This document shows positions 54,073 to 59,872 of a stretch of DNA of 64,000 bases, one piece after another (the stretch's first letter is position 1; each line of letters begins with the position of its first letter). This stretch comes from an uncultured Polaribacter sp. (lineage in GTDB: Bacteria > Bacteroidota > Bacteroidia > Flavobacteriales > Flavobacteriaceae), in NCBI GenBank assembly GCA_947497755.1, contig CANMHT010000004.1, positions 209,589-273,588 of the forward strand, in the 5' to 3' direction. Both the position numbers and the translations under genes were made by a program. Under the pieces are notes generated by a model, which searched no databases, was not told the origin of the DNA, and worked only from the letters and a program-made list of their open reading frames with translations.

Positions 54073-54318
54073 TTGTGATTATTTTTTGGTGAATAATCGA
54101 AACCTTCAAGTCAAGTTGCATATAACTATCGAATACATAAACTGTACGTAATTATACAATGGTGTTATACAGAAACACTCAACAAGACTTACTTGATATT
54201 TTTAGTTGTTAATGAACTTTTTAAAATGCCCCACTATACTTTATATAGCGAGGACTTTTGCAATTTTCCCACTTCACGTGTTCTTTTTCATAAATACGCT
54301 ACAAAGATTTCACCCTGT

Positions 54319-54337
54319 TACGCAATGATTTTGCGTA
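54319..54337. promoter_or_regulatory. Palindromic operator TACGCAA-N5-TTGCGTA, copy 1
   Basis: Perfect dyad 13 bp from the TTTG of a minus-strand -7-like element (AAtcTTTG, 54302..54309). Confidence 0.8.
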
Positions 54338-54343
54338 CCAAAA

Positions 54344-54871
54344 TTATTTTTCATTTTTTTTCTCTTTTTCACTTACTTTGGTTTTCTTTTTCTTTGGCAT
54401 TTTCCCTTTTATACGTTCTTTAGCTTCAGTAACTACACACAGAATATCTGAACTATACCCATGTATTTTGGCTTGTTTTAAAAAAGATAAGGCTTCTTTA
54501 TACTTTTTTAAATGCTCATATAAGAGCGCTTTCTTTATATATAACATGGCCTTATCCAATCCTTTAACAGTAATTCCAAAATCAATAAAATCTTCTGCCT
54601 CTTTATAATCTTCGTTCCATAACAAAGCATCTATATAATGTGGATATACTTCAAATGCATGTACGTTTTCTGCTAAGGCTTCTTTGTAATACAAAATTGC
54701 TTCTTCGTATTTGTACAATTTTTCTGCATACACTCTCCCCATTAATGTCAATGCCATGGTGTTTTTTTCATCATAAGACAAGGCATAATTCAATGCTTCC
54801 ATTACCTCTTCCAAATCATAAGGGTAATTCTCTAAAGCTTTAAAAACATAATTGTTAATCAATGTTCCCAT
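54344..54871 (-). CDS. TPR-repeat protein
   Basis: ALTLMGRVYAEKLYKYEEAILYYKEAL and related TPR helices; last gene of the rtcB-prfH operon. Confidence 0.85.
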   Translation of the reverse strand: MGTLINNYVFKALENYPYDLEEVMEALNYALSYDEKNTMALTLMGRVYAEKLYKYEEAILYYKEALAENVHAFEVYPHYIDALLWNEDYKEAEDFIDFGITVKGLDKAMLYIKKALLYEHLKKYKEALSFLKQAKIHGYSSDILCVVTEAKERIKGKMPKKKKTKVSEKEKKNEK

Positions 54872-54874
54872 GTT

Positions 54875-55567
54875 TTATTCTAATTGTTTTTTCAAATCAT
54901 TTTTTAATTCGTTTCTTTTTTTCTTAAATGATTTGACTTTCTTTTTCTGTTTAAAATCATTCCCTGTAAATACTCTTACAGGATTTCCTCTTTCTACTAC
55001 CTGATGATTCATACATTGATTCTCAAGTTGCTTACTGGTTTGTTCTCTATTAAAATTGAGTACCTTCTCTTGCAATCTCTTGATGGCAATCTTTTTATTT
55101 TGATGCTGAGATCTGCTATCCATTACCAACACTTGCAATCCAGTTTTTAAGTGTTTTGCTCTAATTGCAGAACTTACTTTATTTACATGCTGGCCACCAG
55201 CTCCAGAACTTCGAATTGCCTGAAATTGAATTTCGTTTTCTTTTATTTCTAAAGAAGTTGCTAGATCAATCTCAAAACAACCAATAAACCAATTTTTACG
55301 TTGGTGGTATTTTCTAAAAGTAGATTTACCAATCCACTGAATAGTACCTAACCAATTATTTAAAAAACTGGCAAGTTGATGTCCATCTAATTGTATACTT
55401 ACCGATTGTACAGTGCCGTTTTGTAATCCGTTTTCTTTGTGTAGCATTGCATATTCAATATTGTTTTGTTGCAATTCTTTTAAAAAGATTTTTAACACTT
55501 TAGCTACTACAAAGGCACATTCTTCTGGGCCTTTACCTGCCGATATTTGTATTACTTTTGTTTCCAT
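54875..55567 (-). CDS. prfH: Peptide chain release factor H
   Basis: QISAGKGPEEC N-terminus, RSSGAGGQHVNK (GGQ), RSQHQNK; adjacent to rtcB. Confidence 0.92.
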   Translation of the reverse strand: METKVIQISAGKGPEECAFVVAKVLKIFLKELQQNNIEYAMLHKENGLQNGTVQSVSIQLDGHQLASFLNNWLGTIQWIGKSTFRKYHQRKNWFIGCFEIDLATSLEIKENEIQFQAIRSSGAGGQHVNKVSSAIRAKHLKTGLQVLVMDSRSQHQNKKIAIKRLQEKVLNFNREQTSKQLENQCMNHQVVERGNPVRVFTGNDFKQKKKVKSFKKKRNELKNDLKKQLE

Positions 55568-55655
55568 AATTTTTTATAGTAGAGAAAAAAAGAGAAGAGA
55601 TAAAAGACTCTTATTAATTAGACCTTTCTTTTATGTATTCTATTTTCTTATCTCT

Positions 55656-57534: not shown

Positions 57535-57568
57535 AAAAGCGTCCAAAAAATACATTTTGGACGCTTTT
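57535..57568. terminator. Terminator-like hairpin
   Basis: aaaagcgtccaaaa/ttttggacgctttt 14-bp stem. Confidence 0.7.
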
Positions 57569-57761
57569 GCTATCTTTTTAAAAATTTTTACCTAGAATAC
57601 AGCTCTAAAAAGTCGCAGTTTAGCGTCCAATTTATGTAATTTTAATAGCATCATAGGTTCTAACTTTTGTTTTTTCTTGTTTTTATTGATTGCAAATATG
57701 CAAGAAATTTAATGAATGTTCCAAATTTTAATTGTAAAACTTATTTCTAAATACTTATCTT

Positions 57762-58364
57762 TTAATCTGTAGTTGAAGCAACTATACCAATAAAATAATC
57801 TTTTTTATGTGAATAGATTGTCCAATAGAATTCTCCCCACCATTCTTTTCCCTCATCAAAATATGTTGAAAAATCTGTACTCCATTTATACACTTCAATA
57901 AAACTTAAATCACCAAATATTTTTTTAAAAAAATCAAAGAAAAAATCTCCTTCTTCTTTAATGCTTTTCTTAAGTTTTATACCATAAGGTGTTTCAAAAA
58001 AAGCATATCCCAACCCTCCGTTTAAGTATGTTATAGAAACTTCTTTATTAGATTTATGTTTAAAATACTTATTCCAATTTTTCTTTCTCCCTTTTAAGAT
58101 TATTTCTTCTTCATCTATATTAACAAGGTTTCCATAAAATTCACTCAAAGAAATTTTCTCTCCCGAGTTAAAAAAATCTTGTTCTTTTTCTTTAGATAGC
58201 AAATCATTATTAATTGTATTTAACGCAGTATCAAAATGTAAATCTTTACGCTTTAAATCTATATAATCTCTATTTTTAAAAACTTTAAATTCCAAAACAC
58301 CTCTAGCAATTTCAAACTCTTTAATCATTTGTTTTAATTTCTTGTCCAAACATACTTCTTCCAT
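57762..58364 (-). CDS. Hypothetical protein, co-transcribed with the distal rtcB
   Basis: 200-aa ORF with Trp-rich C-terminus WSTDFSTYFDEGKEWWGEFYWTIY...ASTTD. Confidence 0.7.
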   Translation of the reverse strand: MEEVCLDKKLKQMIKEFEIARGVLEFKVFKNRDYIDLKRKDLHFDTALNTINNDLLSKEKEQDFFNSGEKISLSEFYGNLVNIDEEEIILKGRKKNWNKYFKHKSNKEVSITYLNGGLGYAFFETPYGIKLKKSIKEEGDFFFDFFKKIFGDLSFIEVYKWSTDFSTYFDEGKEWWGEFYWTIYSHKKDYFIGIVASTTD

Positions 58365-58381
58365 GTTCTTTTTAATTTTAC

Positions 58382-59770
58382 TTATTTTTTATTTCTTCTA
58401 CGTTTTTTCCAAGGAGCATTCTTTTGCCAATCACCAGCCATAATACAACCGTAAGGTACCAATTCGTCAATTACTTTTCCCAATCCAAATTCTTCCATTT
58501 GCTTACGTACAGTTTCTGCATTTTTATAAGCAGATGGTAATTCAGTAATGTCAATTTCTTCAGAAAAAAAACGTACATCTAATCCTTTTGTTTCTTCTTC
58601 AAAAATTTCTTGAAATGTTCCTGTTTTACTTTTTTTATGTTGTGTTCTCCTGATGTTTCTACCTGCTCCATGTGGCGCAAATCCTAAGTTATTAGCAGTA
58701 GTTTTACCTTCTACAATTAAAACAGGTTCGCTCATATTTAACGGAATTAATCTTGGGCCAGTAATATCTGGCATAAACTTCTCATCCAATGGTGTAGCTC
58801 CTTTTGCATGATAAAACAAATCACCGTCTTTAAACACAAAATTATGTTCGTTCCAAAAACGATTTTCTTTTTCTATCCCTAGTTTTTCTAAAGTTGCATC
58901 ATGAATAACTTCATGATTTTTCTTTGTCCATTTTCTGATTATTTGTAATGCTTCCCAATAATTTTTTCCTTCTTCTGTCTCAAAGGGAATCCATGCATTT
59001 TGCTTTAATGTTTGAGGAGATAATTCTTTTCTAAATTGTTCTGCAATATGCATTCCTCTCCTATATAAATTCGCTCCAAAACCACGACTACCGTGATGTG
59101 TTACCATCATTGTATTACCTGTGTTCTTAGAAATTCCAACAAATAAAAAATGATTTCCATCTCCTTGTGTTCCTAAATGACTTCTTGCGGCAGAAATACA
59201 TTTCTGATTATTTAAAAAAGGGTTTGCTTCTATCTCTAATAATAAATCAGCAGGAAATCTGTATTGTGTATTTCTATCTCTACCTCCAAAACCAAAATGG
59301 GTACTATCATGTGCTGCATCTAAAACTTCTTTCGGATTCGTTTTTCCAAAATCTGTTAACATTACAGAACAACAAATATCTGCGCTATGCATTCCAGGGT
59401 GAATTGCGTTTTTAGCAACTACAACTCCGCCAACAGGAATTGTTCCTATTGGACCTGTTGGGCAAGAATCTGGCATAATAGCTCCGTCAACAACCGTTGG
59501 CGTCTTCATCAATTCTTCCATAGAACTAATCACAGCATTTACGTTTGTCTCTTCTAATTCGTTTTCTGCTTTGATATTAATTTTAAATTCAATTGGATTT
59601 TTTAATAATGGAATTTCTGGAAGTGGACGAAACTGCTCTAAATAGCTTAACATTTCTTCTTCAGAGAATTCGTTTGTATTAATATGTTCCATCGCTTCAG
59701 GAAACCACTTTCCTGACTTAAATCCTAAATTGATTAAATCTTTACCTGTTATTTTCATTTTGTTTTTCAT
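58382..59770 (-). CDS. rtcB: Second, divergent RtcB-family RNA ligase
   Basis: [46 protein letters not shown]; likely start at 59770 (the track start at 59839 lies in the promoter). Confidence 0.9.
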
Positions 59771-59853
59771 CTCAACTATTTTTTGCTCCACAAATTCCTC
59801 GTTTTGTGGAGCGATTACTTTTTTATGATTCTGATGCAAATATTCTTACTTAT

Positions 59854-59872
59854 TACGCAATCTTTTTGCGTA
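59854..59872. promoter_or_regulatory. Palindromic operator TACGCAA-N5-TTGCGTA, copy 2
   Basis: Between the divergent rtcB and WYL genes; same 13-bp spacing to a -7-like TTTG as copy 1. Confidence 0.8.

Follow-up and report, generated by a model that had tools for sequence, protein, structure and literature searches.

Which regulator, acting through which DNA site, controls RNA repair in Bacteroidia? The question is raised by a 64,000-nucleotide stretch of an uncultured Polaribacter sp. (assembly GCA_947497755.1, contig CANMHT010000004.1, positions 209,589 to 273,588 of the forward strand; 'the window' below is this whole stretch), where two rtcB genes for RNA ligases, a tRNA-like non-coding RNA and a divergent gene for a WYL-domain regulator lie close together, and where an inverted repeat, the dyad of this report, precedes two of the transcription units. 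To our knowledge, the RtcR/sigma-54 system of some Proteobacteria is the one case in which it is known what turns on RNA repair in bacteria, and Burroughs and Aravind are said to have been the first, in 2016, to link WYL proteins to RNA-repair loci, by prediction. In the literature that we searched (on WYL regulators, RtcB and YafY), the WYL regulators described belong to DNA-damage or phage-defence systems, and the regulator described for rtc operons is RtcR; for RNA repair under a WYL regulator we found neither an operator nor a regulon nor an experiment. We consider it likely that the dyad, in its general form TRCGCAA-N5-TTGCGYA, is the operator of the adjacent winged helix-turn-helix (wHTH)-WYL-WCX regulator, and, with less confidence, we favour DriD-like activation as its mode of action.

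The dyad, its distribution and its promoters

Pattern matching over the window finds the dyad, here TACGCAA-N5-TTGCGTA, in two exact copies (TACGCAATGATTTTGCGTA and TACGCAATCTTTTTGCGTA; dyads 1 and 2 of Table 1), and at both copies the gap to a caaa (minus-strand TTTG; 54302-54305 and 59837-59840) is exactly 13 bp. The initial annotation had noticed the identical pair and its coordinates, the equal gap, and a minus-strand -7-type box just downstream of each dyad, one before the tRNA-like RNA and the Band-7 (slipin) gene and the other between the divergent rtcB2 and WYL genes, and all of this was borne out; so was its remark that no dyad precedes rtcB-prfH, since neither exact-pattern nor matrix scans of the window place one upstream of rtcB1-prfH-TPR. 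A genome-wide motif scan, suggested there as a check, returned these two exact dyads as the only ones in the 3.70-Mb assembly, with none at one mismatch and, at two mismatches, nine against six in the control, which is control level. About 0.01 exact dyads per genome are expected from base composition, and the occurrence of the dyad in this genome is far above chance. When a weight matrix is derived from 27 sites in other genera, with the window sites excluded, the two dyads score 44.9 and 44.8 bits and the runner-up position anywhere in the genome 14.9. The likeness of the two sites extends beyond the dyad into the -7 region, with the shared minus-strand pattern TTGsTACGCAAAAnnATTGCGTAAyArG...GAATmTTTG. 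Judged by these scans, the WYL regulon of this genome would comprise two operators.

The site and the regulator gene travel together across genomes. In a family panel of 201 genomes, one per genus (the window's own genus apart), a WYL orthologue at a cut-off of at least 50% identity is present in 22, and the exact TRCGCAA-N5-TTGCGYA in 24, compared with one genome for the reversed control pattern; the site occurs in 20 of the 22 genomes with an orthologue and in 4 of the 179 without (Fisher p = 1e-21), and three of these four (L058-L060) are chance intragenic matches that lack a TTTG at 12-14 bp. Regions of 20 kb around the WYL orthologues have, wherever rtcB2 is present (about 20 loci), a dyad about 100-130 bp upstream of rtcB2, which often precedes the divergent WYL gene by about 40-60 bp; the position of dyad 2 recurs before rtcB2 and before WYL orthologues in other genomes; no dyad was seen directly upstream of rtcB1-prfH in the Flavobacteriaceae regions. 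Among 80 named WYL orthologue loci, from genera that include Tenacibaculum, Polaribacter, Aquimarina, Maribacter, Kordia, Zobellia, Flavobacterium, Crocinitomix, Fluviicola, Saprospiraceae and Flammeovirga, the fetched flanks of about 3 kb contain a dyad in 72, and in 53 it falls at most 150 bp upstream of the WYL start codon, mostly at 37-41 or 27-29 bp. Over the class Bacteroidia, the composite of dyad, 12-14 bp and TTTG is found in 32 of 401 genomes, in 21 genera and many families (reversed control 0/401), usually with a WYL orthologue (48-65% identity) beside it; among regulator genes, only the WYL gene is conserved in these loci. The initial annotation had staked its proposal on the motif recurring at orthologous promoters, and it does so in many genera, its presence tracking the WYL orthologue in the 201 genomes.

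The genes headed by the site are to a large extent those of RNA repair. Class-wide, composite sites precede both RtcB clades, RlaP pairs, Hen1-Pnkp and Band-7 genes; tandem RlaP nucleotidyltransferases (PF10127, E 7e-70) come first downstream of the site in four fetched loci, and rtcB genes of the rtcB1 clade carry the site in other families. An operon of Hen1, Pnkp-ligase and Pnkp kinase-phosphatase is headed by the site L055:6986-7004 (G033:C1:240485), which is the sole exact site of genome G033 and lies about 150 kb from its lone WYL orthologue, itself with no adjoining site; the site therefore appears to act at a distance from the regulator gene. In other genera the first genes downstream of sites also include one for a TPR protein and one for a protein of about 595 aa that matches no family. 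By its sites, the regulon would extend across the class and take in RlaP, Hen1-Pnkp and further rtcB genes beyond the pair of transcripts named in the initial annotation. Proteins of one family, about 595-625 aa long and without a Pfam match, also recur as putative regulon members, placed after tRNA-like modules in the same transcript (L037:2454, L050:8913, L057:7019).

The dyad is held at a nearly fixed distance from the box downstream of it. Thirty-five oriented promoters from about 24 genomes share the layout C-TRCGCAA-AAnnA-TTGCGYA, 9 bp (±1), [A/C]A[T/A]ATTTG[T/C]A, with a dyad-to-TTTG gap that is mostly 13 bp and always 12-14 bp (31, 6 and 3 of 40 matches, five sites being counted in both orientations). 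The spacer AAnnA is orientation-specific, being A-rich on the transcribed strand only. The -7 box nAnnTTTG has A at position 2 in 34 of the 35 promoters and T at position 1 in two (binomial p = 6e-5 against composition), so that the target promoters, those of the window included (AATCTTTG and AATATTTG), fail to match the Bacteroidota housekeeping -7 box TAnnTTTG at its first T and agree with the rest of it. No -33 TTG at a spacing of about 19 nt was found in the target promoters, where the sole TTG lies within the dyad, 13 nt from the -7 box; the position held by the -33 TTTG/TTG of housekeeping promoters is taken up at the targets by the A-rich centre of the dyad. A sigma-70 promoter scan found 25 promoters where 30.6 were expected, and is uninformative for this phylum.

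The WYL gene itself has a separate box at a conserved distance on the opposite flank of the dyad. The consensus at an offset of +16 to +23 is TAtTTTTc over 48 regions upstream of WYL genes that have a dyad close by (47 from orthologous loci, one from the window). A start codon 27-29 bp from the dyad would make the WYL transcript leaderless at loci with that distance, and this puts the predicted start about 5 nt past the box. From these distances we infer that the dyad centre lies near -31 at the target promoters and near -37 at the WYL promoter. In the window, predicted minus-strand starts fall near 54296 and 59831, and a plus-strand start near 59900. The geometry of the promoters points to activation, and not to simple operator occlusion. 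In other Bacteroidia families (L063, L074, L079, L081-L083, L085, L086), a single dyad has TTTG at 12-14 bp on both flanks; dyads flanked on both sides by -7 boxes would be divergent promoters served by one regulator dimer.

The WYL regulator and its possible mode of action

The protein encoded beside dyad 2 is a WYL-type wHTH regulator, as the initial annotation had recognized. Pfam assigns a WYL domain (PF13280, E 2.3e-11, residues 155-220) and a WCX dimerization domain (PF25583, E 2.5e-10, residues 253-325), with no helix-turn-helix match, and the AlphaFold model (mean pLDDT 68.9, pTM 0.32; domains about 70-88, linker low) has an N-terminal winged helix at residues 3-81 (three helices and a beta wing, pLDDT about 70-86), followed by two linker helices, the WYL barrel and WCX. 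The top Foldseek matches in the PDB are WYL regulators only, PafBC (9fnd, E 7e-13) and DriD (1e-12) leading, then BrxR (from 5e-9) and CapW (from 7e-9), the last two spanning E values of about 5e-9 to 2e-7, and the alignments to all four are full-length. A sequence search against solved structures gave no significant match (best BrxR, E 0.18), and the closest named relatives are Tenacibaculum proteins annotated as 'WYL domain-containing' or 'YafY family'. In one sub-clade (L049-L053, from G008, G025, G066, G063 and G064; e.g. L049:14926-16647), the regulator occurs as a fusion of 573 aa whose C-terminal part is a PhyH-type Fe(II)/2-oxoglutarate dioxygenase domain (PF05721, E 4.9e-10), possibly a nucleic-acid demethylase or sensor.

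We hold it very likely, from co-occurrence and position, that this WYL protein binds the dyad, most likely as a homodimer, as the single gene together with the symmetric dyad implies. Two outward promoters would then be under its control, that of rtcB2 and the 200-aa gene behind it and that of the tRNA-like RNA and the Band-7 gene, and the divergent promoter of the WYL gene itself would use the rtcB2 dyad. At the outward promoters the dyad would stand in the -33 place, its centre some 31 bp before the predicted start and its edge 9 bp (±1) from a -7 box of weakened form, and a nucleic-acid ligand on the WYL domain would enable the dyad-bound dimer to recruit RNA polymerase to these intrinsically poor promoters, as DriD does in Caulobacter. 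That the protein activates rather than represses seems to us moderately probable by analogy, a DriD-like activator being favoured because the TACG-N11-CGTA frame, the kind of placement over the promoter and the rigid phasing are the same, on promoters whose -7 box is weakened as well.

The signal might be damaged RNA, such as fragments that carry a 2',3'-cyclic phosphate or a 5'-OH at an end, which is a guess by analogy. It is suggested by a regulon made up of RNA ligases, end-healing or end-modifying enzymes and tRNA mimics, by the precedent of RtcR, which responds to damaged tRNA fragments (PMC7790460), and by a published prediction, cited in PMC7824862, that cyclic ends are recognized by WYL domains. 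Tentatively, and with somewhat more doubt than confidence, we suggest that Bacteroidia may have an inducible response dedicated to RNA damage, an RNA counterpart of the SOS or DriD DNA-damage regulons, in which a DriD-like WYL activator would directly sense damaged RNA ends and switch on the RNA ligases of the RtcB clades, the enzymes that repair or protect ends (RlaP, Hen1-Pnkp), tRNA mimics and an SPFH scaffold, all from plug-in promoters with TACG-N11-CGTA where the -33 box would be.

Several points weigh against a WYL activator, and some concern the sign of regulation. The same protein at the same site could be a BrxR/CapW-like repressor that blocks RNA polymerase at the -33 region until a ligand binds, which we judge rather unlikely. 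A dyad over the -33 region would suit repression equally; the dyad overlaps the core promoter at all sites and also the WYL gene's own promoter, as in autorepressed systems; and the characterized WYL regulators beside defence systems, BrxR and CapW, are repressors, described as keeping costly systems low and matched here in structure over their full length. Genome G140, in which the regulon genes are intact without the regulator, is easier to tolerate under repression. The model of the protein is moderate, with TM-scores of about 0.3, low because the arrangement of the modelled domains is uncertain, so that the higher rank of the activators over the repressors among the fold matches is suggestive only. 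The missing -33 box counts for little in this family, because in Flavobacterium johnsoniae a genome-wide study was unable to identify a motif at -33 (as reported in PMC7366714). Repression, however, has no need of a spacing that stays constant within ±1 bp among unrelated operons and in distant families, and promoters with -7 boxes that lack their first T and with no -33 TTG at a workable distance look too weak for it. In the modelled structure, activators do outrank repressors, and the protein shares with DriD and PafBC its length and the extra linker helices; single dyads between two symmetric -7 boxes fit the recruitment geometry of DriD; and unlinked targets with rigid spacing are unlike the described BrxR and CapW cases.

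The remaining doubts concern the identity of the binding factor and the level at which the repeat acts. In G140, a complete genome, a perfect dyad and -7 box (L057:7019-7037, G140:C1:1307718) stand upstream of a 593-aa gene and then a Band-7 gene, yet the genome has no WYL orthologue (best match E 2.7e-5), and many sites across the panels are related by descent, so that the counts overstate the number of independent observations. The operator could be real and bound by a different transcription factor, with the WYL gene no more than a frequent neighbour, a reading for which G140 speaks. We nevertheless find this quite improbable: the loci conserve no other regulator gene, the presence of the site follows the WYL orthologue in 201 genomes, most WYL orthologues have the dyad at a conserved 37-41 or 27-29 bp from their start codon, the lone WYL orthologue of G033 lies elsewhere in a genome whose only exact site heads Hen1-Pnkp, and the operator frame TACG-N11-CGTA is that of a WYL protein, DriD. 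That the inverted repeat works at the RNA level, as a hairpin or terminator behind the TPR gene, or is a duplicated piece of promoter that has no part in regulation, is in our estimate extremely improbable. Dyad 1 does sit just past the TPR stop codon and could form a 7-bp hairpin, but on the minus strand no T run follows, and the terminator scan does not report the dyad; no gene lies upstream of dyad 2, which is situated between divergent genes; and the half-site sequence is conserved class-wide without compensatory changes, the frequent form TACGCAA...TTGCGCA giving A-C mismatches in RNA. The missing T tract, the lack of covariation and the mismatches led us to discard the hairpin or terminator, and a recent duplication cannot account for conservation across families or for sites at unlinked operons. 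An operator bound by the WYL protein, acting as an activator, is the reading that we retain.

Genes and elements around the two sites

Along the minus strand, the plus-strand WYL gene is followed by dyad 2, rtcB2, a 200-aa gene, a two-sided hairpin, rtcB1, prfH, the TPR gene, dyad 1, the tRNA-like RNA and the Band-7 gene (Table 1).

Table 1. Features around the two dyads, in window coordinates
Feature	Position	Strand	Evidence and remarks
SPFH/Band-7 (slipin) gene	52490..53620	-	Pfam Band_7 1.9e-27; downstream of the RNA
tRNA-like / YrlA-like non-coding RNA	53905..54296	-	sub-threshold Rfam matches; 5' end near 54296 predicted
-7 box AATCTTTG, non-coding RNA promoter	54302..54309	-	9 bp from dyad; architecture conserved
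putative operator dyad 1, TACGCAATGATTTTGCGTA	54319..54337	none	exact match; 7 bp past TPR gene stop codon, upstream of tRNA-like RNA
TPR gene	54344-54871	-	gene annotation
prfH	54875-55567	-	gene annotation
rtcB1	55656-57047	-	gene annotation
G+C-rich 14-bp hairpin, T runs on both strands	57535..57568	none	terminator scan and sequence
200-aa gene	57762..58364	-	open reading frame list; 17 bp past rtcB2
rtcB2, divergent RtcB RNA ligase, first gene of the putatively regulated operon	58382..59758	-	Pfam RtcB 9e-37; ATG at 59758
conserved 10-bp hairpin in rtcB2 5' leader, loop ACGAGGAA	59785..59812	-	RNAalifold, 19 leaders
-7 box AATATTTG, rtcB2 promoter	59837..59844	-	9 bp from dyad; 13 bp to TTTG
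putative operator dyad 2, TACGCAATCTTTTTGCGTA	59854..59872	none	exact match; common to divergent rtcB2 and WYL promoters
-7-like box TATTTTTA, WYL gene's own promoter	59888..59895	+	+16 to +23 from dyad
WYL regulator gene, 346 aa; wHTH, helical linker, WYL, WCX	59910..60950	+	Pfam, AlphaFold, Foldseek

The 200-aa gene, for which Pfam gave no family match, probably shares an operon with rtcB2. In other genera the slot after rtcB2 is filled by different small genes of unknown function, of 139-202 aa, and in one genus a 590-aa DUF4209 protein, a candidate regulon member, follows rtcB2 directly (L038:9665-11438). The hairpin at 57535-57568 is probably a two-way terminator and would separate the rtcB2 operon from the rtcB1-prfH unit in transcription. 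Because the rtcB2 operon probably ends there and rtcB1-prfH-TPR has no site of its own, the PrfH ribosome-repair module would be outside the control of this operator in this genome.

The 5' leader of rtcB2 holds a conserved stem of 10 pairs, nine of which show compensatory changes among the 19 leaders aligned, and the hairpin may add a second, RNA-level layer of control. Many of the promoters (L035-L057) are followed by a longer, two-hairpin leader that consists of GAATCATAAAGAAG, a variable hairpin, GTAGTGCTCC..., and the 10-bp stem with the loop ACGAGGAR; depending on the genus, rtcB2 or tRNA-like RNAs come after it. It has no Rfam match and is represented in the window by a copy with the first hairpin missing.

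At the other promoter, sequence conservation with L035 starts immediately past the -7 box, where the non-coding RNA is predicted to begin. Rfam reports, below threshold, YrlA at 54000-54074 (30.3 bits, E 0.0038) and tRNA-like matches at 53905-53960 and 53974-54032, whereas ARAGORN finds no tRNA over 50000-64000; a genuine tRNA was discarded on these grounds, and the RNA is called tRNA-like because ARAGORN finds none and the Rfam matches are sub-threshold. The terminator scan reports no terminator-like site on the minus strand between this RNA and the Band-7 gene, and the two are probably co-transcribed. Equivalents of dyad 1 lie 0.7-1.9 kb upstream of Band-7 genes in L035, L036, L038, L039, L045 and L051 and about 3 kb upstream in L057, and sites also precede Band-7 in L065, L069 and L074. 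In the 20-kb regions around WYL orthologues, tRNA-like sequence fills the stretch between the second or third site and the Band-7 gene.

Significance and comparison with known systems

What we propose as new, by analogy with the characterized system, is the use of a DriD-like WYL promoter design for RNA repair and non-coding RNAs on promoters of the Bacteroidota type. The analysis supplies an operator sequence, a promoter layout, a candidate regulator and a list of targets (RtcB, RlaP, Hen1-Pnkp, tRNA-like RNAs, Band-7) for a large and ecologically important class, and with them a testable model for the control of RNA repair in Bacteroidia. In Bacteroidota genomes the site can serve to mark genes as regulon members, among them that of the protein of about 595 aa and the 200-aa gene, both of unknown function. 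Questions that now come within reach are which signal induces the regulon, whether a WYL transcription factor can sense damaged RNA, and what purpose tRNA mimics serve where Ro is absent.

The closest likeness is to DriD of Caulobacter crescentus (wHTH-3HB-WYL-WCX), which has the same domain order and is among the best structural matches here. DriD binds the operator ATACGAC-N7-GTCGTAT as a homodimer; in all promoters under its control the operator overlaps the -35 place and is equally far from the -10 box, these promoters have no good -35 elements, and DriD bound to single-stranded DNA recruits RNA polymerase to them (PMC13004042). Both operators are palindromic with the outer frame TACG-N11-CGTA, both sit over the position of the upstream element at a fixed distance from the downstream element (here in 35 promoters, and in 32 of 401 genomes compared with none for the control), and both would serve a small stress regulon spread over several promoters. 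The proteins share only about 16% sequence identity, however, and the promoters are of the Bacteroidota -7 type here and of the -10/-35 type there; DriD senses single-stranded DNA and controls DNA-damage genes, whereas the predicted regulon here is one of RNA repair and tRNA-like RNAs, with activation proposed by analogy. PafBC of Actinobacteria, an activator that works by sigma adaptation, is the best Foldseek match, and its promoters have no upstream element and a site fixed relative to the -10 box. Unlike the present system, with its one gene and symmetric dyad, PafBC is a heterodimer or fusion, its site is short, non-palindromic and at -26, and its DNA binding needs RNA polymerase.

BrxR and CapW, of BREX and CBASS systems, respectively, share the wHTH-WYL-WCX fold, a gene divergent from the regulated system, an inverted-repeat operator between the two and probable autoregulation. 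They differ in being about 290 aa long, lower in fold rank and repressors of a single adjacent operon, whereas the sites described here are several, in part unlinked, and rigidly phased. RtcR, which activates rtcBA (and rsr-yrlBA-rtcBA) with sigma-54 in Escherichia coli and Salmonella, is a functional analogue: it is a ligand-sensing regulator dedicated to one RNA-repair operon, in which tRNA-like Y RNAs are encoded as well. It is, in contrast to the wHTH-WYL protein and unrelated to it, a CARF-AAA+ enhancer-binding protein that acts on a different promoter type, and the window locus, unlike rsr-yrlBA-rtcBA, has no Ro60 gene and carries PrfH, TPR and Band-7 genes instead.

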